Positions 1,587-22,561 of a stretch of 64,000 nucleotides of DNA are shown here, piece after piece. Made by a program: the position numbers and the translations under genes. The stretch's first letter is position 1; each line of letters opens with the position of its first letter. Source of the DNA: an uncultured Chloroflexia bacterium (GTDB taxonomy: Bacteria > Chloroflexota > Limnocylindria > Limnocylindrales > CSP1-4); assembly GCA_963721655.1 (NCBI GenBank), contig CAVRKH010000008.1:1026-65025 (forward strand). Direction: 5' to 3'. The notes below the pieces were generated by a model. It was not told the origin of the DNA, did not search any database, and saw nothing but the letters and a program-made list of their open reading frames with translations.

Positions 1587-1748
1587 CCGTGAACCGCCGC
1601 TTCGAGCTTGCCGTTGATTACCAGGGCTGATGATTGGCCAGAACTGCGCACGTTCTGGCCAAACCGGTCCCGTGGACTGGTCCTGCCGCGCAACCCGGAC
1701 AAGGCGCGCCGACCCGGGTTTTGGCGGTCCCCGTGCGATAATCGACCC

Positions 1749-2723
1749 GTGGGAACAGTCGAAACAGTCCGCATCGCGAAGCGGACCGGGTTCTGCTACG
1801 GCGTGCGCGAGGCGATCGACAAGGCGAAGGAAGCCTCGGCCGCCGGCAAGACCACGCATACCCTCGGTCAGGTCGTCCACAACGAAGGCGTCGTCCGCGA
1901 CCTCCAGTCGCTCGGCATCGAGACCGTGGAGACGCTCGACGACGTCGATGGCGGCGCAGCGGTCGTGATCCGCGCGCACGGCGTCCGGCCGGACGTCATG
2001 GAGCGTGCGAACGAGAAGGGCCTCGAGGTCATCGACGGCACCTGCACCTGGGTGATCCAGGAGCACCGCGAGCTGACGAAGCTGGTCGAGGAGGGCTACA
2101 CCATCGTCCTGCTCGGCACGCCGAAGCACGCCGAGGTCGTTGGCATGCTCGGGTTCGCACCGGACGCGATCGTCGTCGACGAGGAAGAGGAGTGGGACGC
2201 GGCGGTCCCGCGCAAGAAGCGGATGGCGCTCATCTCCCAGTCGACGCAGCCGCCGTGGAAGTTCGAGAAGCTGGCCGCGTTCATGGTCGGTCGCGCCCAC
2301 GAGCTCAAGATCGTCAACACCGTGTGCCCGGTCACGATCCGCCGCCAGCAGGACACGATGGAGATCGCGGCCGAGGTCGATCTGATGGTCGTCGTCGGCG
2401 GCCGCTCGAGCGCCAACACCAAGGAGCTGACCCGGCTCTGCGAGATCGCCGGCACGCACGCGATCCAGATCGAGAACGTGCGCGAACTGACCGATCCCTC
2501 GGTGTTCGACGGCAAGCGCGTCGTCGGCGTCACCGGTGGCACGTCCACGCCGATCGAGGACCTTCGCGACGTCACCGAGCGGATCCTCGAGATGGCCGGC
2601 ACGTCGGACGTCAGTGCCCGCGCCGCCGAGCTCGCACAGGAAGCGCTGCTCGTGGCCGCGACCCCGGCCGGCCGCACGACCTCGCTCCCGACACCGTCGA
2701 CGGCCACCGCAGGCGCGGCGTAG
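1749..2723 (+). CDS. ispH: 4-hydroxy-3-methylbut-2-enyl diphosphate reductase
   Basis: ORF 1608..2723. Conserved part starts at GTG 1749 (VGTVETVRIAKRTGFCYGVREAIDKA.. HTLGQVVHNEGVV.. GGRSSANTKEL). Confidence 0.9.
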   Translation: MGTVETVRIAKRTGFCYGVREAIDKAKEASAAGKTTHTLGQVVHNEGVVRDLQSLGIETVETLDDVDGGAAVVIRAHGVRPDVMERANEKGLEVIDGTCTWVIQEHRELTKLVEEGYTIVLLGTPKHAEVVGMLGFAPDAIVVDEEEEWDAAVPRKKRMALISQSTQPPWKFEKLAAFMVGRAHELKIVNTVCPVTIRRQQDTMEIAAEVDLMVVVGGRSSANTKELTRLCEIAGTHAIQIENVRELTDPSVFDGKRVVGVTGGTSTPIEDLRDVTERILEMAGTSDVSARAAELAQEALLVAATPAGRTTSLPTPSTATAGAA

Positions 2724-2727
2724 GGCG

Positions 2728-4341
2728 GTGAGCCCCGCGAGCAACCCGCTCCCGATCGTCGCGATCGTGGGGAGGCCGAACGTCGGGAAGAGCACGCTCT
2801 TCAACCGGATCGTCGGCGGACGCCCCGCGATCGTCGAGGATCGCGCGCGGACGACCCGTGATCGCCTCTACGGCGACGCCGAGTGGAACGGCCGTCGCTT
2901 CGTCGTCGTCGACACCGGCGGGCTCGAGATCGACCCGAACGACCTGATCGAGGCCAAGGTCCAGGAGCAGGCGCGCCTCGCGATCGCCGAAGCGGACGCG
3001 ATCCTCTTCGTCGTGGACGCCGCGACCGGCCTGACGCCGGCCGATCAGGAGGCGTCGGAGCTGCTGCGCCGCGCGACATCACCGGTGATCGTCGCCGTCA
3101 ACAAGGCCGACAACGACAAGCGCGAGCTCGAAGGAGCCGAGTTCCACTCGCTTGGCTGGGAGGAGACCTACCAGATCTCGGCTTCGCACGGGCGCGGGAC
3201 CGGCGACCTGCTCGACGCGATCGTCTGGGCGCTGCCGCCCGAGAGCGAGCAGGAACAAGCGCGGAAAGCTCGAGAGACAGAGGCCGAGGCGTGGGCCGAG
3301 GAAGTGGCGGCCGGCAAGCTGGAGCCGTTCGTGGTCGACGAGCCCGAGGCCGACGAGGACGGCGTCGATGCCGAAAAGGAGGACGCCGGTGCAGCACGCT
3401 GGGACGCCGCGATGGCGGCCGAGGCCGACGAGCCGGCTGCGATCGCCTTCGTCGGCCGTCCGAACGTCGGCAAGTCGAGCCTCGTCAACGCGCTCCTGGG
3501 CCAGGATCGCGCGATCGTGTCCGAAGTCCCGGGGACGACCCGCGATTCGATCGACACGCGACTCGCCTGGGGCCGAAGCGAGATCGTGCTCATCGACACG
3601 GCCGGGATTCGACGCCGCGGAAAGGTCGCCAGCGGACCGGCCGCCGAACGCTATTCGACCCTCCGCGCGCTGCGCGCCATCGCCCGTGCCGACGTCGCAG
3701 TCCTCGTCATCGACGCGGTCGAGGGGCTGACCGCCCAGGACGCCCACGTGGCCGGCTACGTGCTCGAGGAGGGGAAGGGGCTCGTCGTCGCGGTCAACAA
3801 ATGGGACCTCGTCGAGGAGAAGACCGACCGGAGCTTCGACCAGTACGTGTCGTGGATCCGCGACCAGGCGCCGTTCCTCGAGTTCGCGCCGATCGTCTCG
3901 ATCAGCGCGAGGACGGGCCAGCGCGTCAGCAAGGTGCTCGAGCTTGCCGTGGACATCTGGGGGGAGCGCCGCCGCCGCGTGCCGACCGGCGAGCTGAACC
4001 GCCTGCTGGCGACCGCGACCGAACGCGTCCTGCCGGCGATGAGCCGCGGCCGGCGCCCGAAGATCTTCTACGCCACCCAGGCGGCCGTCGCGCCGCCGAC
4101 GTTCGTGTTCTTCGCGTCGGACGCGTCTTCGGTGCACTTCTCGTACCGGCGCTACCTCGAGAACCAGCTGCGCGAGGCGTTCGGCTTCCACGGCACGCCG
4201 ATCAAGCTGGTGTTCCGCGACCGGGCCAAGGTGCGAGTGCCGCGCCGCCGCAGCACGAGGTCCGGGCGAACTCCGGAGACCGCCCGGAAACCATCGCGTT
4301 CGAAGCCGGCCGCGGGCCGACGGCAGCAGGGTCGCCGCTGA
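2728..4341 (+). CDS. der: ribosome-associated GTPase Der/EngA (two GTPase domains plus KH-like domain)
   Basis: In-frame GTG at 2728 within ORF 2536..4341. Two P-loops (GRPNVGKSTLFN, GRPNVGKSSLVN). Acidic linker between the G domains and an Arg/Lys-rich C-terminal tail. Confidence 0.9.
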   Translation: MSPASNPLPIVAIVGRPNVGKSTLFNRIVGGRPAIVEDRARTTRDRLYGDAEWNGRRFVVVDTGGLEIDPNDLIEAKVQEQARLAIAEADAILFVVDAATGLTPADQEASELLRRATSPVIVAVNKADNDKRELEGAEFHSLGWEETYQISASHGRGTGDLLDAIVWALPPESEQEQARKARETEAEAWAEEVAAGKLEPFVVDEPEADEDGVDAEKEDAGAARWDAAMAAEADEPAAIAFVGRPNVGKSSLVNALLGQDRAIVSEVPGTTRDSIDTRLAWGRSEIVLIDTAGIRRRGKVASGPAAERYSTLRALRAIARADVAVLVIDAVEGLTAQDAHVAGYVLEEGKGLVVAVNKWDLVEEKTDRSFDQYVSWIRDQAPFLEFAPIVSISARTGQRVSKVLELAVDIWGERRRRVPTGELNRLLATATERVLPAMSRGRRPKIFYATQAAVAPPTFVFFASDASSVHFSYRRYLENQLREAFGFHGTPIKLVFRDRAKVRVPRRRSTRSGRTPETARKPSRSKPAAGRRQQGRR

Positions 4342-4369
4342 CGACCCGGTGCTAGACTGCGTTGCCTGT

Positions 4370-4446
4370 CGGGGCGTGGCGCAGTCTGGTAGCGCACCAG
4401 TCTGGGGGACTGGTGGTCGTGGGTTCGAATCCCGCCGCCCCGACCA
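4370..4446 (+). tRNA. tRNA-Pro (anticodon GGG), CCA encoded
   Basis: Hand-folded cloverleaf: acceptor CGGGGCG/CGCCCCG, D stem GCGC/GCGC, anticodon stem CCAGT/ACTGG with loop CTGGGGG, T arm GTGGG-TTCGAAT-CCCGC. Confidence 0.9.
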
Positions 4447-4614
4447 AATTCCCCTCACGAAATGGCACTCGGAGGGCGGAGTGTGCCAGCGCGCATGCAG
4501 CGGCGAGGACGGACAACGCGATGCCGAGGGTGACGGGCCGCAGCACGGCGTCATCCTCGCACGCCGATGAGGTGCTCGAAGAAGCAGGCCTGCCCTCGCG
4601 TGAGCACCGCCTGC

Positions 4615-6200: not shown

Positions 6201-6295
6201 GGCCCGACCCACGGTCGGGGCCGTACCCTGTCCGCCATGACCGAACCCGCGAAGCGTGAGCGTGCCGCGCTCGACGTCTTGGAGCTCTTCCCGGA
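6201..6295 (+). repeat. intergenic hairpin plus mini-ORF repeat, copy 2
   Basis: GGCCCGACCCACGGTCGGGGCC-GTACCCTGTCCGCC-ATGACCGAACCCGCGAAGCGTGAGCGTGCCGCGCTCGACGTC... The mini-ORF is 49 codons (ATG 6237). Confidence 0.8.
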
Positions 6296-6443
6296 ATGGA
6301 CTCAATCCCAGCGAGCGCCGCGGCCTGCACAACCTGACCGACTGACTCGGCCGCTGACGGCCGACGAGGAGGGGCGGGTTACCTAGCGATACGCCGGCTG
6401 ACGGGATAGACCTTTCCATTGGACTGGTACTCGGCCGCCTCGG

Positions 6444-9044: not shown

Positions 9045-9288
9045 TTGGCAACCACCCTTCTGAGCCCGCACGCCTGTCAACCAAGAGGTCCGGTCCCGCA
9101 ATTGGCCCAGAACGACGGCGACTGTGACGGGACGCCACGCTCCCTCGGGTTCGCGCCGCCCCACGCGCTCCCTGTGCCCTCCCCTTGGTCGCGGAAGTAT
9201 CGCCATCGGCACGGTCAGGTGCGTCGTTCATCTGACGTAATTCGTTCGGCGGTCATCCTCGTAGGCCGGTGGACAAGGGCATGGAAAG

Positions 9289-9328: not shown

Positions 9329-9621
9329 AGTCTGAGAAGGAGAAGGCTCATTCCCGTGACGACATCCTGGTCGACCCGCGAGCGAGTTTCCACGCCTGAA
9401 CCGCGCAGACCCGCGCGCCGTTTCTTGCTGCCTTTGAGCAACTCGTGACCCCGAACCGAAGCTGGCATCGCCCGTTGGTGTGCGGCTTGGCTTCGGCCAG
9501 TTGGATAGTTCCGGGGACAGTGTTCGGCCCCGCCTGCTGGGACCGGTCGTGGTGAGATCGAGATGGACCTCGCAGAGCTGGAGGCCGAGACGCTCGACTA
9601 CGACCAGCGGGTGCTTGAGTT

Positions 9622-9700
9622 CGGTGCAGGCACCTAGTGGCACCACCTTGGCCGTCTGGGGACTGGTGGTCGTGGGTTCGAATCCCGCTGCCCCGACCAA
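9622..9700 (+). pseudogene. tRNA-Pro remnant: 3' half near-identical to 4400-4447, 5' half degenerate
   Basis: 9654-9700 equals 4400-4447 apart from one G deletion and one C>T. The anticodon stem cannot pair (GCCGT vs ACTGG) and the D arm is not foldable. Confidence 0.75.
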
Positions 9701-9800
9701 TTTATCCCGCTCGAATTTGACCACTCAATGGCCGGAGTGTGTTCCGAAGCGGGAGATCGCGCGCGTGTTTTGCGCCGGAACCGTGTGCAACAGCCGGCGT

Positions 9801-11702
9801 TCAGGGGGCGAGGCGCTGGTAGGAGGCGGTTCCGAAGTGTGAGATCTCGGTCGTGACCGGCTGGAGCTGCCCGGATGGGTCGAACTCGATGATGGTGTTC
9901 TCGTTGGCATTGGGACCCTTGTCAGCGTCCGCGAACGCCAGGCCGAGCAGGCGGGCGCCATCGGGCGACCAGAGCAGCTGGTACGGACTCAACCGGGGAC
10001 CGGGAACGGGGCGCGCGTTCGAGCCGTCGGCATCGGCGACCATGAAGAACGCGTTGGCATAGGAGGTGTCTGGATTCCGAACATATGCGAGGCGCGTGCC
10101 GTCCGGCGACCAGGCCACGCCATTCTCATCCTCGGCGCTGTTCGAGACGTTGCGGAGGTTCCTTCCGTCTGCGTCGACGACGTGCACGTCGCGCAGGTCG
10201 CCGACACCCCGCGCCAGGAACGCGAGCCGCCGACCGTCCGCCGACCATGTGGGCTGCGCGCCCCCGCCCGGGTTCGACCTCGAGTGACCGGACATCGTCT
10301 GTACCCGTGAGTCCCAGATATCGGGCGCAGCCTCGTGGGCGTTCGATCCATCGACATTGATGACCCACAGCGAGTCGAGCGCTTCGCCGCAACAAGTCGT
10401 CCGGTGAAAGGCGATTTGGCGGCTGTCCGGAGACCAGGCCGGATCGCCCCCGAACACGTCCGGCCCGCCGAGCCGCACCGCGCCGGGGTCGTCGATCGCG
10501 CCGATGAGGATCTGCCGTTCCTCCTCGCCGACCGGCCGAGCCGCGACCGCGACGTGACGGCTGTCCGGCGACCAGGCGATCGGACTGTTTTCGGCGAGCC
10601 CTTCGATCACTTGGACGCGCTCGCCACCGTCGGCCGGCATCACGAACACGTCGAACGAGAAGTCCGGCTGCTGCGATTCGAAGGCGATCAGCGTCCCGTC
10701 CGGGGAGTAGGCGGGGAGGGCCTCGAACTCGGGCCCCGAGGTCAGCTGGACCAGCCCTGAGCCGTCGGGGTTCGACGCGAACAGGTCGCCGTTCGCGTCG
10801 AAGGCGATCAGGCCCGGCTTCGCGAGACCGAACGGAGGTGCGGGCCTGCGCGACGAGCCGATCACTGCCAGCACCGTCGCAAGCGCGATCAACAGCAGGA
10901 CGACGGTCACCACTGCGACGACCCTCGGGCTGAGGCTCGCGCGGTTCACCAACCGCCGCGGCCGCCACCGATCGGCGACGAGCAGGCGCGGCCGCTGCCG
11001 GGTCGACTCGACGCCAGCCAGCGCGGCTTCGAGCAGCCCGTCCGGGGCCCGGCCGACGGCCTGCTCGTCGAAGTAGACCCGGAAGTCGCGGTCGAGGTCG
11101 CGCTGGGTGGTCATCGCATCGCTCCCGTCGCGAATCCGCTCGCTGCGGCGTACGTCGGCGTCCAGCTCCGCGCGCATCGCGGCCGTGGCGCGATGGAGGC
11201 GCGACTTGTAGGTGCCGGTCGGGATGTCGAGCATCCGGGCCGCCTCGTCGTCCGACAACTCGAGGTAGTGGTGGGCCACGAGCACCGCTCGGTGCTCGGC
11301 GCTCAGGCCGCGAAATGCCCGGTGGATCGCGTCCCGCGTCTCGAGTGTCCGCGCCGGGTCCGGCGCGCTGTCCTCGACCGCCGGCAGGATCTGTCGCAAC
11401 GCGACCTGCCGCCGCTCGCGCCCGGCCGCCCGGTAGACGCAGCGGACGAGCACCCGGTCGAGCCAGGCCCGGAAGCTGTCCGGGTCGCGGAGCGAGCGCA
11501 GGTCGCGCCACGCCGCGATCAGGGCCTCCTGGACGGCGTCCGAGGCAAGGTCGGGGTCCGCGAGCATGAGCTGCGCGAGGTTGTAGAGCTGGCCGATCGA
11601 CGCGGCCGCCAGGACGCCGAAGGCGTCCCGGTCGCCTCGTTGTGCCCGCTCCACCAGATCCCGCTGCACGCTCGCAATTGCCTCCGGCCTGCTGCTCCGC
11701 AC
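9801..11702 (-). CDS. single ORF joining an ECF sigma-70 factor, a linker, one TM helix and a TolB-like PD40 beta-propeller
   Basis: Uninterrupted 633-codon ORF. Sigma regions 2 and 4 are present (AVQEALIAAWRDLRSLRDPDSFRAWLDRVLV.. IPTGTYKSRLHRA). Internal Met at 11114. TM segment VVAVVTVVLLLIALATVLAVI. PD40 blades (YSPDG.., WSPDS.., WSADG..). Likely start GTG 11669 or 11702. Confidence 0.75.
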   Translation of the reverse strand: MRSSRPEAIASVQRDLVERAQRGDRDAFGVLAAASIGQLYNLAQLMLADPDLASDAVQEALIAAWRDLRSLRDPDSFRAWLDRVLVRCVYRAAGRERRQVALRQILPAVEDSAPDPARTLETRDAIHRAFRGLSAEHRAVLVAHHYLELSDDEAARMLDIPTGTYKSRLHRATAAMRAELDADVRRSERIRDGSDAMTTQRDLDRDFRVYFDEQAVGRAPDGLLEAALAGVESTRQRPRLLVADRWRPRRLVNRASLSPRVVAVVTVVLLLIALATVLAVIGSSRRPAPPFGLAKPGLIAFDANGDLFASNPDGSGLVQLTSGPEFEALPAYSPDGTLIAFESQQPDFSFDVFVMPADGGERVQVIEGLAENSPIAWSPDSRHVAVAARPVGEEERQILIGAIDDPGAVRLGGPDVFGGDPAWSPDSRQIAFHRTTCCGEALDSLWVINVDGSNAHEAAPDIWDSRVQTMSGHSRSNPGGGAQPTWSADGRRLAFLARGVGDLRDVHVVDADGRNLRNVSNSAEDENGVAWSPDGTRLAYVRNPDTSYANAFFMVADADGSNARPVPGPRLSPYQLLWSPDGARLLGLAFADADKGPNANENTIIEFDPSGQLQPVTTEISHFGTASYQRLAP

Positions 11703-11732
11703 GATAGGGGACGCGAATACCGCTTTCGTTCC
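11701..11732 (-). promoter_or_regulatory. candidate ECF-type promoter upstream of the sigma ORF
   Basis: Minus strand reads GGAACGAA-N15-CCCTAT about 30 nt upstream of GTG 11669. Same bipartite spacing as the two plus-strand copies. Confidence 0.35.
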
Positions 11733-11740
11733 ATTTTCTG

Positions 11741-11828
11741 GGCCGGGCGCTGGCGGCGGCGTCCAGTGGAACGAATCGACCCCACGTCATCCCTATAGGT
11801 CGGCAACGGGCCGCCGACGATGGAGCGA
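11741..11828 (+). promoter_or_regulatory. ~88-nt direct repeat copy 1, containing GGAACGAA-N15-CCCTAT and a GTCGGC/GCCGAC hairpin
   Basis: Near-identical to 12349-12433. GGAAC is at 11768-11772. Confidence 0.45.
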
Positions 11829-16073: not shown

Positions 16074-16565
16074 TCATCCGCGAGGTCGACCGGGCCAGGG
16101 GATGAGCCGTCGGGTCCGCGCCCGGTACGCCGCGTAGTCCGGGAAGCGCTGCTCGAGCCAGGCCTCCTCGCGCACGGACTTCACGAGCAAGAAGGCCGCG
16201 AGCGCCACGGCGAGGGCGACAGCGACGATCGACGCTTGGCCGATCGCCCAGCCGAATGCTGCGAGAATGAGCCCGCCGTAGATCGGGTGGCGAACGAACG
16301 AGTACGCGCCCGTTTCAACGAGGGCGGCACCGTCGCGTGGCTTGGGAAGCGGCGTGAATGCGCCTCTGAGGTCGATGGCTCCACGGACGGCGAGGACGAT
16401 GCCACCGGCGATCAGCACGATCCCGACGACGATGCCCGCGAGGCGCAGCGTCCCGGACCAGTCCGGCCCGAGCGACCAGCCAGCGGCCGCGACGACGACG
16501 AGCAATACGCCCTGGATGAGGACCCATCCCTCCCCACGCGGGCCGAGCGACGGCAGATGCGTCAT
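16074..16565 (-). CDS. isoprenylcysteine carboxyl methyltransferase (ICMT/PEMT-like) family membrane protein
   Basis: Polytopic ORF with FVRHPIYGG..EEAWLEQRFPDYAAY. Confidence 0.75.
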   Translation of the reverse strand: MTHLPSLGPRGEGWVLIQGVLLVVVAAAGWSLGPDWSGTLRLAGIVVGIVLIAGGIVLAVRGAIDLRGAFTPLPKPRDGAALVETGAYSFVRHPIYGGLILAAFGWAIGQASIVAVALAVALAAFLLVKSVREEAWLEQRFPDYAAYRARTRRLIPWPGRPRG

Positions 16566-17348: not shown

Positions 17349-17448
17349 TCGGAGCGACGATTGCTCGAAGGCAGCAGCCTTCAGGGCGCGGTTCTGCTTG
17401 GCTGATGCGTTCGAATTCGCACCCAGGTCGATCAGGCTCTATGCACGG

Positions 17449-17523
17449 TCCCGGCTCTCCCCCAGCCGGGGCCGTACTCTGTCCCCCGAGACCGACCCCG
17501 CGAAGCGCGAGCTGCGGCGTTGA
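17449..17523 (+). repeat. intergenic hairpin plus mini-ORF repeat, copy 6 (truncated, ATG replaced by GAG)
   Basis: CCCGGCTCTCCCCCAGCCGGGGCC-GTACTCTGTCCCCC-GAGACCGACCCCGCGAAGCGCGAGC, then divergence. Confidence 0.75.
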
Positions 17524-17907
17524 CGCAGTACAAGCTCCTCAATGCTCTTGCGATCACCGTCGGCTTCGTCCTCGCGGGCTGCTTCGCGAGATTCCGCAGT
17601 CGGTCCCTGCACCCTTCAGATCGAGGCCAATGAGAATGGGCACCGCGTCCTGGAGCCGCCCTACAGTGTTCGCCTGGGACCGGGCAGCGACCCCACCGTC
17701 CTGTACGTCTCCGGGACAGGCTGGATGCAAGCGAGCATCGTCTTCCGACATAGCTCTGGCTACGAGAACAGCTGGCAGCTAACTCGGCACGACATCACCG
17801 GGAACACCACGGGCTTCCCTGTCAACCGGCCCGGGCAGTGGCAGGTTCGAATGTCCGACCCGGTCAGCGGGTGTGTGCAAGAGTTTGCCGTCGAGGTAGT
17901 TGAATGA
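17520..17907 (+). pseudogene. small lipoprotein, lipobox out of frame with mature part
   Basis: TTG 17520 frame gives LTQYKLLNALAITVGFVLAGC. The mature part is ORF 17542..17907 (..DSAVGPCTLQIEANENG..). Frame change near 17585-17600. Confidence 0.45.
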
Positions 17908-17960
17908 CCGACCCCGCGAAGCGCAGGCGTGCCATTGCCCGGCGACGCAGTTCTCCCGAG
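17904..17960 (+). repeat. intergenic mini-ORF repeat, copy 7 (no hairpin)
   Basis: ATGACCGACCCCGCGAAGCGCAGGCGTGCC... The ATG 17904 overlaps the TGA 17905-17907 of the upstream gene. The mini-ORF is 48 codons. Confidence 0.75.
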
Positions 17961-18204
17961 GCCGTCCGCCGCAACGCGTATTGGCGGATGTTCGGGATGC
18001 GGCCTCGCGTTCCTCGCATTGGGCGTGGCGATCATTTCATGGCGTCCTGATCCGCAGGGTTCGCAACGCTCGAACGAGCGTCCGTGGCGACGAGTGACCT
18101 TGTTGCCCTGGCCTCACACCCCCGGGTTCGCTAGCTCCCCGGCGAGGATGCTGTACGATTCCCGTCCTTCACGGGGAAGAATCGCGCCGAGCTGGAGGAC
18201 CCCA

Positions 18205-20057
18205 ATGTCCAGCCTTCGTGACCGCACATCTCGCTTCGGCGTCCTGGCGGCCCTTGGTGCCACGTTCGCTCTTGGCGCGTCGACCGTGCTGGCGTCGTCG
18301 CCAGGCGTCGACGTTCGGCTCTCGAACGACTTCCCGGACGGCGGCTACGTGAGCGCCGACGACATCGCCGGGCTTCCGCATTACTCCGACGACACGCTCG
18401 ACGAATGCTCGCGCGCCCGAGGGCGCCAGAACGAACCCGCCCTCGCGATCAATCCGCGCGACAGCCGGGTCATGATCGGATCCGCGAACGATTACTGCGG
18501 AACGTTCAACGACGGCGATGACGACGACGGAGCGCCAATCGCGTCCGGCCCCATCTGGCTCGGCTACTACCGCTCCGAGAACGCGGGCGAATCCTTCGTC
18601 AGCTCGCTGGTCCCGGGATATCCGGGCGACACGTCGACCCTGGGCCAGTTGGCCAGGATTCGAACGGCGAGCGCCGGCGATCCAGTCGCCGCGTGGGACG
18701 CCGACGGCCGCGTGTTCATGGGCGCCGAATCGAGCGACGACCCCGCCGGCTCGAAGAAGACGTTCGGCGACGAGTGGGTCGCCAGATACGTCAATCCCGA
18801 CGGACCCGATGGCGACACCATCAACGACGGCAGCCGCTTCGCCGGCTCGGTCGTGGTCGCCAAGGGGTCCTCCGCGCCGAACCTGCTCGGCAAGTTCCAC
18901 GACAAGACGGCGATCGAAGCCGACCGCACGGACACCTCGTGCCGCGGCAACGTGTACTTCGCGTGGTCGCGCTTCACGGGCAACGGCGACACGGCGGGTG
19001 GGCATCTACTTTGTCCGCTCGACCGATCACGGCGTCACGTTCTCGCAGCCGATGAAGCTGACCGCTGGCGTGCACGACGTCCAGCTGCCCGAGATCTCGA
19101 TCACCGGCAACGGCCACGTGTACGTGACCTACCGACAAATCGAGGACAGCGGCCACCAGGTCGACAGCGTCGGGGTCGTGAAGTCGACCGACTGCGGCAA
19201 GACCTTCTCGAGGCCGGCGACGATCACGAACGTCGCCGCCATGGGCCTGACCGACGCCCTGCTCGGGGGCGGCAACGCCCGCGACTGCGGGGACGGGGTC
19301 GGGACCGGCTGCGAGAGCGGGTACACCTTCTTCCGCGCCGACACCGGTCCGCGCGCCACCGCCGACCAGGCCGACACCAATCATGAATGGGTCTACGTGG
19401 CCTACGAGGCGATCGTCCCGGGCACGGAGGTCGACACGGGCACGACCTTCGGCTGGGCAGACGAGCAGGGTGCCGGTGGCCAGTCGGCCGTCTACTACGT
19501 TCGATACGACGGCGCGGCGAACACCCACACGACGCCTGAACGCATCTCGCCCATCAGTGACGGCCAGCAGCTGTACCCGGACCTCGCCGTCGACGACGGC
19601 GTCGTCCATGCGCTCTGGTGGGACACCCGAAACGACGCGAACAACGACGCCACGTCGATGCTCGTGCGACCGCCAGGCAACGACGCGGACGGCAACGTCG
19701 GGCCGTCGTTCGACGTGTACGCGGCCACCCGGCCCACGGACGGTGGCTCGTGGACATCCGACGTGCAACTGACCGACTTCACCTCCAATGGCCAGTGGGA
19801 GCAGTTCGGGGGCCGGACGGTCCCGTTCGGTGGCGACTACCTGCTGGATCGATTCGCAGGACGGCACGACGTTTGGGACGTGGACGGATTGGCGGAACAC
19901 GGTCCCCGGCACCGACCTTCGCGAGGAGGAGGAGGACGAGACCGGGGCGGACGTGCTCCAGTGTCGGTTCGACACGGGTGACGGCGTCATCTCCGGCGAC
20001 ACGTGTCCGCGAGACGGCGGGCTCGACCAGGACATCTACGGCGACGCCGCGCCGTAG
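18205..20057 (+). pseudogene. secreted BNR/Asp-box (sialidase-fold-like) protein, two frame changes
   Basis: Signal peptide MSSLRDRTSRFGVLAALGATFALGAS (ORF 17929 frame). Asp-boxes STDHGVTF and STDCGKTF (ORF 18518 frame). C-terminus lies in ORF 19788..20057. Breaks near 18985-18995 and 19840-19850. Confidence 0.6.
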
Positions 20058-20117
20058 TCACCGAGCTACGGATCGCTGAGGCCCGCAGCAGCACGGACGT
20101 TGCGTCGTTCACGGTTC

Positions 20118-20209
20118 TGGGCCGTGCCCTGTCCGCCATGACCGATGACGTGGCGAGGCGTGGGCGTGCCGCGCTCCAGGGTCTTTCTTCCGGGGTCGCG
20201 AGCGGCTAG
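20118..20209 (+). repeat. intergenic hairpin plus mini-ORF repeat, copy 8
   Basis: GGGCCGTGCCCTGTCCGCC-ATGACCGATGACGTGGCGAGGCGTGGGCGTGCCGCGCTCCAGGGTC... The mini-ORF is 23 codons (ATG 20138). Confidence 0.7.
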
Positions 20210-20354
20210 ACTTCCGCGACCCAGAGGAGGGCACCGGAGCCGCGCGGGGGACGTTTCCCAGCAGCGCGACAAGCCGTCACGGTCGCCGGTCGCGCTGGGC
20301 CAATGGCGAGACCGATCCTCGGGAGTTGGGCGTGCGCGCCCAGGGAGGTGTCAA

Positions 20355-20790
20355 GTGAAGCGCCTTTCATTGGTTCTCGGCGCCCTGCTGCTCGGGCTGT
20401 TCGTGGCTGCTCCGACCGGTCCAGGCTGCTCCGGCAGCGACGGCGTTTACCGGGGAATGGATCGGCGAGGATCCTGCGCCGCCCGACGGCGATGGCAGTA
20501 CCGTCCATCTCTTCGTCTCCGGGGGCGACCACCCGCGGGTCGAGTTCACCGACGAGTTCGGCACGGTCTGCGAGGACGTCGGGTCGCCCGTCACCGTCTT
20601 CTCGAGCATGCTTCGGGGATTCGTCGATGGCGACACGCTGTTCGCTCTGTTCAACGTCGCGAAGTGCGGTCCTGTGACGATCAAATTCCTGACCGGAGAG
20701 CAGGCGATCTGGACCCTCGACGACCAGGGGAATGCCGATCCAGCGGACGACACGCTCTTTGACGGAAGCGTCGTCTGGCATCGGGTGTAG
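20355..20790 (+). pseudogene. small lipoprotein, lipobox out of frame with mature part
   Basis: GTG 20355 after GGGAGG gives VKRLSLVLGALLLGLFVAAPTGPGC. The mature part (TGEWIGEDPAPPDGDGSTVHLFVSGG.. to ORF 20608..20790) is in another frame. Break near 20440-20450. Confidence 0.5.
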
Positions 20791-20842
20791 AGCCTCCTCG
20801 ACTCTCGGTCCCGGACTCGCGACCCCGGGTCGCGCGGCTCAC

Positions 20843-20885
20843 GGCCCCGGCTTCGGTCGGGGCCGTACCGCGTCGAAGCGCGTGA
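20843..20885 (+). repeat. intergenic hairpin repeat, copy 9 (internally deleted)
   Basis: GGCCCCGGCTTCGGTCGGGGCC-GTACC-GCGTCGAAGCGCGTGA. Confidence 0.65.
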
Positions 20886-21085
20886 CTACCCCAGGCAGCC
20901 TCGATGAGATCGAGCAGAAGCGCGAGGTGACGCTGCCCAGAGACGCCTCGCACTCGACCGGCAGCCGGATCGCCTGCCGCACCGTGCTCGAACGCAGCAA
21001 CATGTCGCGCGTCGGTCTGCATGGTTGATGTGTAGGAACCAGCTCCTGGATCGATCAGGCTGTCTGTATCCAGGAGGACGAGCAC

Positions 21086-21196
21086 ATGAACGAAATGGAC
21101 CGCTTCAGGTTCAATGTCAGTTGGTATCTCTACAAGTTGCGAGCGTGGTGGCGTGATGCCAAGGCTGTGAAGACGCCGCCTCCGCCGCTTCGTTAG
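21086..21196 (+). CDS. possible 36-codon small protein
   Basis: AGGAGGA lies 7 nt before ATG 21086. Peptide is MNEMDRFRFNVSWYLYKLRAWWRDAKAVKTPPPPLR. Locally lower GC, followed by a GC hairpin. Too short for the ORF track. Confidence 0.35.
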   Translation: MNEMDRFRFNVSWYLYKLRAWWRDAKAVKTPPPPLR

Positions 21197-21221
21197 GCCG
21201 CCGCTGGGAATCGCGGCGGCC
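21196..21221. terminator. GC-rich hairpin between convergent genes (terminator-like, no clear U-tract)
   Basis: GGCCGCCGC-TGGGAATC-GCGGCGGCC. Confidence 0.3.
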
Positions 21222-21231
21222 TTCGGGAGGG

Positions 21232-21589
21232 CTAGCCTTCGGCAGCTCGCTCGGCGGCCTGGCGATATCGGTCGTGCGCTGCCGCTTCCTCGACATCCGC
21301 GATCGCCGAGGCGCGACGTCGTATCGGCGGAGTCAATGCGAGCCGCTTCCACCGCGAGCCGCGATGCCGTTGCCGTCTTGGTCGCGGACGACTCTGCCAG
21401 CTTTGACGACTCAAGGGCCGCCCTGGCGGCCGTTGCAGTTGCCATCGCAGCAGTGGCCGCCTCCTCGGCGGCAGCCGCCGCGGTCTCCGCTGCCAGCCGC
21501 CCACGGCGAGCGACGGCAGCCGAGCGCTCGGCCTCGCGCCACCCGTTGAGCGCACTCGCAGTGCTGAGCGTCTCGTCTTCGTCCGTCAT
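21232..21589 (-). pseudogene. Ala-rich coiled-coil protein (paralogue of 63282..63683), one frame change
   Basis: ATG 21589 after GAGGAGAGG gives MTDEDETLSTASALNGWREAERSAAVA... The C-terminus ..ASAIADVEEAAAHDRYRQAAERAAEG* is in the frame of ORF 21232..21555. Break near 21310-21330. Confidence 0.45.
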
Positions 21590-21653
21590 GCCCTCTCCTC
21601 GGTAAGACCTCGGGATGAGGCCATTCGACACGCAAGGGTACGCCCCTATGTGC

Positions 21654-22316
21654 TCAGGGGCGAACTTCGTCGAGAAGCGCGCCGGCCGCGTCGTAGCCGC
21701 GCACCACGACGTCCGGCGGCGGGCCCGGATCTCCGAGACTGGCCCGGCGGCACGTTGGAAGGCCACCATCCGGCGAACCAGCCGTTCTCGAGCGTGGCGA
21801 GGATCGGCGGGACCACCGACGGGCTCGATCTCGACCGATGCGATGCCCGGTCCGGCACGGCCGATCACCGACCATCCCTGGACCTTCAGGCTGCCGCCGC
21901 CGATGGACCCGACCTGGGCTTCCGCGAGCTCGGTCGCTTCGATTGGTGCCAGCTGCTCGACGCCGTTTCCATCCAACCGCCGCCTGCGCCGTTGATCTGT
22001 CCGGCGGCAGTGATCTCCAGCGCGTCGCACGTGCCAGCTCCCTGGCCGACCATGCGCACCACGGCGACCGCTCCGCCACGAACGTCGACGAGCGCCGCGA
22101 CGCTTGCCGGGCCCTAGCTCCATGTCGCGGCGACAGCCTTGTTCGACGCGGCTGCGCAGGGCCGGCTCGAGAACGAACGGCCGCGGCTGCCACGGGCCGA
22201 TGAGCTGCTGCAGGGACGCCGGGGCCGGCCCGCACGGCGAATGGGGTGTCTTCTCCTCCGCAGGCGGCAGCGAGGAGCAGCCCGACGGCGAGGATCGCGA
22301 GCGGGACGCGAGCCAT
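21654..22316 (-). pseudogene. lipoprotein, at least four frame changes
   Basis: MARVPLAILAVGLLLAAAC carries the lipobox. Protein-like stretches then alternate between all three minus frames: SLQQLIGPWQPRPFVLEPAL, GPASVAALVDVRGGAVAVVRMVGQ, VEQLAPIEATELAEAQVGSIGGGSLKVQGWSV, PILATLENGWFAGWWPSNVPPGQ, DVVVRGYDAAGALLDEVRP*. Confidence 0.5.
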
Positions 22317-22561
22317 GGCCCCTCCGAGATGGATGCCGCCGCACGATACGCCCTCGTCGGCGTCAGATTGACAGGTTGTGCGGGCGTCGGCCCGCCCTAT
22401 GCTCTCGCCGTGACGATGGAGCCAGCGTCCGCCCGAGGACGACGACGCCACCGGGAGTCCCGGGGAGGCGCCTCCCGAACCCGTCACCGATGCGCGGCCC
22501 GCGCCGCTGCCCTGGGAGCACACGGTCGAAGCCGCACCATCCGTCACGCTCGAGCCGCAGG

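Follow-up and report, generated by a model that had tools for sequence, protein, structure and literature searches.

How do four copies of a short repeat come to alternate, on one strand, with genes for exported proteins? The question is raised by the array at 17.4-20.9 kb of the window analysed here, a stretch of 64,000 nucleotides (positions 1026-65025 of the 215-kb contig C8) from an uncultured Chloroflexia bacterium. Profile, hairpin and core matches locate the four repeat copies on the plus strand, where they separate a lipoprotein gene (lipo1), a BNR/Asp-box gene of the 'sialidase family' (the BNR gene) and a secreted-protein gene (sec2). A preliminary description, made from the sequence alone, had likened this arrangement to a gene-cassette array and proposed site-specific insertion or recombination at a conserved core within the repeat. 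We come to a different answer. The repeats are probably relics of genes for a small protein, and they mark recombination junctions in a mosaic, integrase-linked island. This replaces an integron-like reading by a testable and mostly ordinary one, in which remnants of an unstable small gene lie at the junctions of a mosaic island.

The window belongs to a metagenome bin of 3.39 Mb in 21 contigs that is ~76% complete and is referred to as G000. Intact orthologues for comparison are supplied by the closest genome, G003, which is of the same genus. Two additional contigs cover parts of the array: L062, a 4.9-kb contig from another sample that is 95.3% identical to window positions 18182-20828 and 88.9% to 20870-22368, and the more distant L057, which was compared around the BNR gene. 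We use FAM as our own name for the family of small proteins of ~122 amino acids from which the repeats derive.

What is the repeat?

The repeat is composed of a GC hairpin (consensus ACGGCCCCGGC-loop-GCCGGGGCCGT), a 14-nucleotide leader, GTACCCTGTCCGCC, an ATG and ~20 conserved codons (MTDPAKRERAALDVLELLP...). Elsewhere in the window's genome the same repeat continues into open genes of 77-133 codons, and G003 contains full FAM genes of 121-122 codons. Their product, of ~122 amino acids, begins MTDPAKRERAALDVLELLPEWWAVGPTSYDPG... (MTDPAKRER...). The relics in the window hold FAM codons 1-9, 1-11 and 1-20, plus one core remnant. This identifies the repeat as the 5' end, or head, of a FAM gene, and we regard it as likely that the four copies are vestiges of four FAM-family members, with 7-20 codons left in each.

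The perfect 19-nucleotide direct repeat around lipo1 is real: a repeat search of the window finds GACCGACCCCGCGAAGCGC at 17490-17508 and again at 17906-17924. It consists of the last base of the start codon and FAM codons 2-7 (TDPAKR). Its 18-nucleotide core, allowing up to three mismatches, is present in seven places in the window, where shuffled sequence leads one to expect 0.57. A profile made from four copies detects the repeat on the same strand at 17443-17566, 17904-17933 and 20112-20180, and the hairpin with a short core remnant at 20841-20886 is the fourth. All four are direct. The features of the array are as follows.

17361-17445, plus strand: copy 1 of the 'X' module, an island element with several copies; directly 5' of hairpin 1
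17445-17475, plus strand: GC hairpin 1, ACGGTCCCGGCT-loop-AGCCGGGGCCGT, with a 12-bp stem (z = -2.6 for the 91-nucleotide context)
17474-17519, plus strand: leader GTACTCTGTCCCCC and head 1, FAM codons 2-9 (TDPAKREL), including the left 19-mer
17520-17907, plus strand: lipo1, lipoprotein gene with lipobox LAGC; signal peptide and mature part in different frames
17904-17960, plus strand: head 2, decayed start of a FAM gene; codons 1-11 clear, possibly to ~codon 20
18150-18204, plus strand: 5' region of the BNR gene, TGTACGAT (extended -10-like), then GGAGG
18205-20057, plus strand: BNR/Asp-box 'sialidase family' exported-protein gene, split over three frames
20110-20180, plus strand: head 3; degenerate hairpin CACGG..CCGTG, leader and FAM codons 1 to ~20 (MTDDVARRGRAALQGLSSG); profile E = 1.6e-7
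20194-20345, plus strand: multi-copy leader similar to the c-di-GMP-II-GAG riboswitch, with its Rfam match at 20240-20326
20355-20790, plus strand: sec2, secreted-protein gene with a signal-peptidase-I type signal, frame-broken
20841-20886, plus strand: hairpin 4 (20841-20866), GTACC and the core relic GCGTCGAAGCGCGTGAC
20985-21061, plus strand: copy 2 of the 'X' module, which closes the array; 71% identical to copy 1
9366-9441, minus strand: copy 3 of the 'X' module, the third in the window

The four copies have been reduced to different degrees. In head 1 the start codon has changed from ATG to GAG and the remaining codons abut the h-region of the lipo1 signal peptide. The ATG of head 2 overlaps the stop codon of lipo1 (ATGA). 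Head 3 is found at the same place in L062, and copy 4 is essentially a hairpin, GTACC and a short core relic. It had been stated that the left element of the 19-mer pair breaks off exactly where the right one resumes. This reads too much into the sequence: heads 1 and 2 both contain codons 2-7, only the left copy adds hairpin and leader, and the right one is the decayed start of a whole gene.

That the core is coding sequence is evident from the family itself. A database search returned 195 FAM homologues of ~122 amino acids, all unnamed and without Pfam domains. Their alignment is conserved along its whole length, and codon positions 1 and 2 are better conserved than position 3, which is a coding signature. 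Could the head be under an additional constraint as nucleotide sequence? Third-position identity is 0.61-0.71 in codons 1-20 compared with 0.45-0.93 beyond; no head-specific constraint is seen and we reject this possibility, as synonymous sites there are no better conserved than elsewhere in the gene. The AlphaFold2 model of FAM has a mean predicted local distance difference test score (pLDDT) of 90.9, with a predicted order of helix, three strands, long helix and helix. A fold search with this model gave weak matches resembling double-stranded RNA-binding domains (dsRBD) and hibernation-promoting factors (HPF), with a best E of 7e-3 and template modelling scores (TM-scores) of ~0.45 or lower, so that the resemblance of the predicted alpha-beta3-alpha core to a dsRBD is treated as a weak lead. 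Searches of Pfam, PHROGs and PDB sequences gave no match for FAM, lipo1 or sec2, and Rfam contains no family for the hairpin or head. FAM is thereby defined as an uncharacterised protein family with a confidently predicted fold, specific to an uncultured soil lineage.

The family is unstable within the genus, with 0-23 copies per genome: five same-genus genomes have 0, 0, 1, 5 and 23 matches, and the window's own genome has 7. Across that genome the relics end at about codons 7, 9, 11, 15, 20, 21, 21 and 39. With ends that vary in this way from copy to copy, the relics reveal no fixed site of crossover.

The hairpins have perfect GC stems of 9-12 bp and loops of 3-7 nucleotides, forming palindromes of 22-30 nucleotides, and are followed by GTACC(C/T)TGTCC. 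A scan for the hairpin with GTACC (CGGGGCCGT[AT]) finds ~9 copies, all of them in four island regions (C8 5-21 kb, C9 1.6 kb, C15 65-71 kb and C14 122.8 kb). The hairpin always lies 50-100 nucleotides past the end of an upstream gene, and for this reason is likely to act as a terminator.

Two further arrangements of heads were noted. Window positions 6237-6386 hold an internally deleted mini-FAM of 49 codons, which combines a head (residues 1-22) with a tail similar to residues ~105-117 (RPLTADE..RVT). In G003, tandem heads are situated 3' of the sec2 orthologue (L054:16545-16617 and 16460-16518, minus strand): a truncated hairpin-head is directly followed by a second head that runs on into a FAM gene. 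Head duplication is thus not unique to the window.

What do relatives carry at the same places?

On contig C8 of G003, lipo1, an ATGA stop/start overlap, a FAM gene and the BNR gene follow each other in the same order as in the window. The FAM gene is recognisable to ~codon 57, and the BNR gene is an intact frame of 614 codons. In L057 the BNR gene is preceded by a divergent, full-length FAM gene. The gene order in G003 identifies head 2 (17904) as the stump of a pre-existing gene and not as the right half of a split element into which lipo1 was inserted, as had been proposed. In G003 lipo1 is an intact lipoprotein gene with its own start (VRRPRLAALAITVGFVLGGC...), and it is not bracketed by the core: no head is present on its 5' side, and the family gene lies on its 3' side only. 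A hairpin also occupies the orthologous position of hairpin 1, and a startless hairpin-head is found 1.4 kb further upstream.

The sec2 gene with its leader and the next hairpin forms a single block, 88% identical, on another G003 contig, where a FAM gene (codons 1-76) follows the hairpin at the position of copy 4. Synteny with relatives breaks beside the relics, and the blocks shared with G003 start or end at 17544, 20057 and 20202, which is 25-80 nucleotides from the relics and outside the 19-mer. Site-specific recombination at the 19-nucleotide core, the mechanism originally suggested, is thus not supported: the core is coding sequence, the relic ends vary and the block borders lie off it.

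Strain variation is seen in L062, where an extra segment of ~860 nucleotides falls exactly at copy 4 and separates hairpin 4 from the core relic. On it are a second copy of the riboswitch-like leader and another signal-peptide gene, which the window's genome lacks. The junctions do not form a clean reciprocal product, and ~9 nucleotides there are unique to the window. Together with the different location of the sec2 block in G003, this supports a modular and strain-variable array that is bounded by hairpin/head repeats. The locus varies among its relatives, and secreted-protein genes with leaders similar to c-di-GMP-II are gained or lost at these repeats between near-identical strains.

Capture of the head by lipoproteins

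What can become of a head once the rest of its gene is gone? One outcome is observed outside the array, in a lipoprotein of 235 amino acids at C15:70771. In this protein and its three nearest homologues (71-98% identical), the N-terminus consists of FAM residues 1 to ~10-15, which are fused to the h-region and lipobox at differing junctions; the signal peptides of ten more distant homologues are ordinary. In this family, lipoprotein signal peptides have taken over the FAM head as their N-terminus, in frame, and have stably kept it. A further case is a lipoprotein at L023:15424 (MTNPAKLAPAALLAITLLLGAC) with the hairpin-leader directly upstream. Judging from its composition, the N-terminus of FAM, rich in lysine and arginine, would suit the n-region of a signal peptide. 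Head 1 of the window, joined to lipo1 without a start codon, looks like a dead version of such a capture. These examples document that the 5' end of a cytoplasmic gene has repeatedly been recruited as the signal-peptide N-terminus of lipoproteins.

Island setting and a possible course of events

The preliminary description had no recombinase in view, and this holds for the entire contig, on which no tyrosine recombinase (PF00589) is found. When the whole bin, which is ~76% complete, was searched for an integron integrase (TIGR02249), the best score was 84 bits, far below the cut-off of 265; the matches are ordinary tyrosine recombinases on other contigs. No serine recombinase was found in the bin. 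A recombinase tied to the repeat has thus not emerged from it; tyrosine integrases are located near sister arrays, 2-14 kb from FAM clusters (C14:128863 and the G003 contigs C8, C10, C26 and C25), and the one at G003:C8:52088 adjoins a tRNA-Val. The window's island region starts at a tRNA-Pro (4370-4446), whose 3' half is repeated at 9654-9741. The array is situated 13 kb downstream of this tRNA and 8 kb past the repeat of its 3' half, with no integrase on the contig.

Several observations concern the island as a whole. Window positions 1710-4487 and 9769-11808 correspond to inverted paralogous segments on another contig of G000 (C9:13667-10892 and C9:6426-4387), to which they are 97.2% and 91.7% identical. 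The paralogous segments include a second tRNA-Pro as well as sigma and propeller genes. A sister island forms the end of C9 and has a hairpin-head of its own (C9:1561-1616). Just 3' of the window's tRNA-Pro, an 80-nucleotide element at 4486-4566 may represent an island-end (att-like) sequence. It recurs at C14:128091-128166 (0.7 kb from the tyrosine integrase), C14:122205-122246, C15:63143-63220, C15:63602-63681 and C9:556-619, and twice in G003:C8 beside the integrase and tRNA-Val.

How might the array have come about? In the islands of this genus, which are variable, tRNA-linked and associated with tyrosine integrases, FAM genes are interleaved with genes for lipoproteins and secreted proteins, and the array at 17.4-20.9 kb is probably an island stretch in which the FAM genes have shrunk to heads. 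Head 2 is probably what remains of the FAM gene that ancestrally stood between the lipoprotein and BNR genes, and head 4 of one that was once 3' of the secreted-protein gene. Head 1 has probably become joined to the signal peptide of lipo1, much like the stable in-frame capture in the other lipoprotein family. The perfect 19-mer is then simply the best-conserved part of two neighbouring relics, and neither a target duplication nor the core of a recombinase site. The sequences show what the repeat is, the synteny, the differing truncation points, the strain polymorphism and the capture of heads; how the rearrangements proceed is our inference. Deletions, block transfers and the gain or loss of modules would occur preferentially at the dispersed hairpin/head repeats, presumably by homologous or illegitimate recombination. 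The heads may persist because they carry the hairpin, probably the terminator of the upstream gene, together with a start region on which downstream genes come to depend.

Some observations sit uneasily with this course of events. In the window only heads survive, with the exception of the internally deleted copy at 6237; purely random decay should leave tails as well, so that the 5' module is favoured by selection or by a mechanism of some kind. The L062 module placed exactly between hairpin 4 and the relic, and the breaks in synteny that hug the relics, would also fit a dedicated recombination system, and a recombinase could be missing from a bin that is only ~76% complete. The roles of the hairpin-leader as terminator and start module are ones that we infer: a scan for the sigma-70 promoter consensus found no promoter, and the sole terminator-like site in the scan is at 20343-20368, at the start of sec2 and not at the hairpins. 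Weighing these points, we think a dedicated recombination system unlikely to very unlikely.

Which other explanations survive?

A more far-reaching version of the relic explanation would see hairpin, GTACCCTGTCCGCC leader and FAM head as a portable 5' module. Such a module might serve as the preferred junction for riboswitch-controlled secreted-gene modules and at the same time as a start and n-region that can be captured; the FAM protein might bind the hairpin, and the secretome might be shuffled either independently of a recombinase or by one that has yet to be linked to it. We consider this proposal unlikely.

Could one head instead have been copied from the other by a local duplication or gene conversion, which would account for the perfect 19-nucleotide identity around lipo1? 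Both heads have CGC at codon 7, where the G003 orthologue of the right copy has CGT, and from the per-site identities of the family we estimate that a perfect 19/19 match is only ~4-7% likely. CGC is, however, common at this codon among FAM members. Neither head is a simple copy of the other, since the left one comes with hairpin and leader and the right one with a decayed gene, and no flanking sequence has been duplicated, as would be expected of an ordinary tandem duplication. Moreover, the startless hairpin-head 1.4 kb upstream in G003 could be the orthologue of the left head, moved next to lipo1 by a deletion. A copying event between the two thus appears quite unlikely.

Is the array then a true cassette system, in which hairpin and ACCGACCCCGCGAAGCGC core form the site of a site-specific recombinase, as in an integron or shufflon? 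Much of what had suggested this stands: the copies share one orientation and alternate with single genes, a module is present or absent exactly at hairpin 4, the sec2 block is found elsewhere in the genome of G003, the BNR unit (18150-20057) has sharp borders and occurs in at least six different contexts, and tyrosine integrases lie near sister arrays. The likeness to gene-cassette arrays therefore extends to modularity and strain variation. It does not extend to the recombination site or the enzyme. The core lies in the coding sequence of a conserved protein family, the relic endpoints vary from copy to copy, no 'cassette' in G003 is bracketed on both sides, the block borders are 25-80 nucleotides off the core, and the L062 junctions are not cleanly reciprocal, given the ~9 nucleotides unique to the window. 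No integron integrase scores above the cut-off, no serine recombinase was found in the bin and no tyrosine recombinase is on the contig; the hairpins are not attC-like, and the BNR gene and sec2 have what look like expression signals of their own. We judge a cassette system very unlikely.

Finally, the array or its frame breaks might stem from mis-assembly or consensus errors in a repeat-rich, strain-mixed long-read bin. The window's +7, +1 and +1 indels are missing from L062, whose own private indels include one in a GGGG run, and the bin is ~76% complete in 21 contigs. Against this, L062 independently reproduces the BNR gene, head 3, the leader, sec2 and the hairpin, and G003 does so for lipo1, head 2 and the BNR gene. 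The core genes at window 32-42 kb are intact, so that errors are not uniformly frequent, and a 7-nucleotide insertion is atypical of single-base consensus errors. We judge this explanation very unlikely.

Other candidates were tried and rejected: an integron attC array (no IntI, wrong site anatomy), a miniature inverted-repeat transposable element or insertion sequence end (no inverted partner or repeats, ends from codon 7 to 39, a 19-mer that is family coding sequence), repetitive extragenic palindromic sequences or bacterial interspersed mosaic elements (only ~9 copies, confined to islands), a target-site duplication (a coding core, which does not bracket the lipoprotein gene in G003) and 5'-end switching of the Mycoplasma vsa/vsp type (all four copies direct, no recombinase on the contig).

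How does the array compare with known systems?

The closest likeness is to paralogue remnants in tRNA-linked islands. The tRNA-Pro 13 kb upstream with the repeat of its 3' half, the integrases of sister islands, the mosaic content, the variation in copy number between close genomes and the relics at breaks in synteny are all shared with such remnants. Unlike them, almost only 5' ends remain here, always with the same hairpin and leader, and unrelated lipoproteins have adopted this 5' module as the N-terminus of their signal peptides.

With integron arrays and clusters of attC sites lacking integron integrases (CALINs), the array has in common same-strand, single-gene modules, hairpin-forming repeats between them and a strain-variable content. 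Here, however, there is no IntI, the 'core' is coding, and the modules have their own promoter-like or riboswitch-like leaders. attC sites are imperfect palindromes of 57-141 nucleotides with R''/L''-L'/R' boxes and a GTTRRRY core. Set against this general definition, by inspection and folding, the hairpins of the array are perfect GC palindromes of 22-30 nucleotides followed by GTACC.

The upstream homology box families of Borrelia and the vlp, vsa and vsp families of Mycoplasma are lipoprotein paralogues with shared, conserved 5' ends. As in the array, an upstream region and the first codons are common to otherwise unrelated exported-protein genes and provide natural substrates for recombination. 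In contrast to these families, the head comes from the gene of a small cytoplasmic protein, and heads are for the most part dead relics; neither an adjacent invertase nor inverted sites were found, and there is no evidence of phase variation.

Orphan toxin/immunity arrays downstream of contact-dependent growth inhibition (CDI) or Rhs loci consist of tandem modules in which short stretches homologous to the full gene allow modules to be swapped. Tandem modules preceded by short stretches homologous to a full-length gene are seen here as well, but the stretch is an N-terminal head and not a pre-toxin C-terminal motif, and no toxin or immunity domains were recognised.

Exported-protein genes, frame breaks and leaders

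All three exported-protein genes are frame-broken in this assembly, as had been described. Relative to its intact G003 orthologue of 126 amino acids, lipo1 has one additional nucleotide near 17587. The BNR gene differs from its intact orthologue of 614 amino acids by +7 nucleotides at 18990-18996 and +1 at 19844, and sec2 from its own (88% identical, 144 amino acids, intact) by +1 at 20418, a difference that it also shows to L062. Where L062 covers the array it lacks all the window's breaks, and it has two private indels instead. Among the sequences compared, the breaks are private to this assembly; they would reflect either very recent island decay or, in a region of mixed strains, errors of the consensus. 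Without reads, frame breaks in this bin should not be taken as biology.

The frame breaks also bear on what sec2 encodes. It had been described as a second lipoprotein gene, but the intact orthologue has a signal of the signal-peptidase-I type (..APVVQA followed by AP); what looks like a lipobox in the window results from the frameshift. The BNR protein has more than 2000 homologues of ~614 amino acids and a match to PF13088 below threshold, and otherwise no match in Pfam, PHROGs or PDB. Its 5' region (TGTACGAT and GGAGG) is kept in 6/7 of the orthologue loci compared upstream, beyond which the sequence differs. Exact-protein look-ups of the flanking genes, one for a PAS protein with two alternative starts and the other a 36-amino-acid open reading frame, gave no match.

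A fourth exported-protein gene, split over three frames, is found at 21657-22228 on the minus strand. This pseudogene is homologous to the C15:70771 lipoprotein family (P0244), with 45-81% identity in pieces.

The leader of sec2 scores 38.9 bits at 20240-20326 against an Rfam gathering score of 40 (RF03169, c-di-GMP-II-GAG; full model 1-86 matched). Paralogous leaders in relatives score 33.7-39.1 bits, and two in the same-genus genome G002 reach 68.8 bits; the copies are too similar for covariation to show. Further paralogues lie at window 9060-9204 (minus strand) and, in G000, at C15:65851-65966, C21:358881-358947 and C17:15083-15186. For sec2, the additional module of L062 and L023:13818, where the gene that follows was examined, the riboswitch-like leader precedes a secreted-protein gene.

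Two smaller elements accompany the array. A perfect 17-nucleotide palindrome, CGCGACCCCGGGTCGCG, stands at 20818-20834 immediately before hairpin 4 and is missing from L062. The 'X' module is a conserved element of ~85-115 nucleotides that flanks the array as a direct repeat. In G003, matches of 79-82% to this module occur at at least five sites, there too beside hairpins and riboswitch-like leaders.

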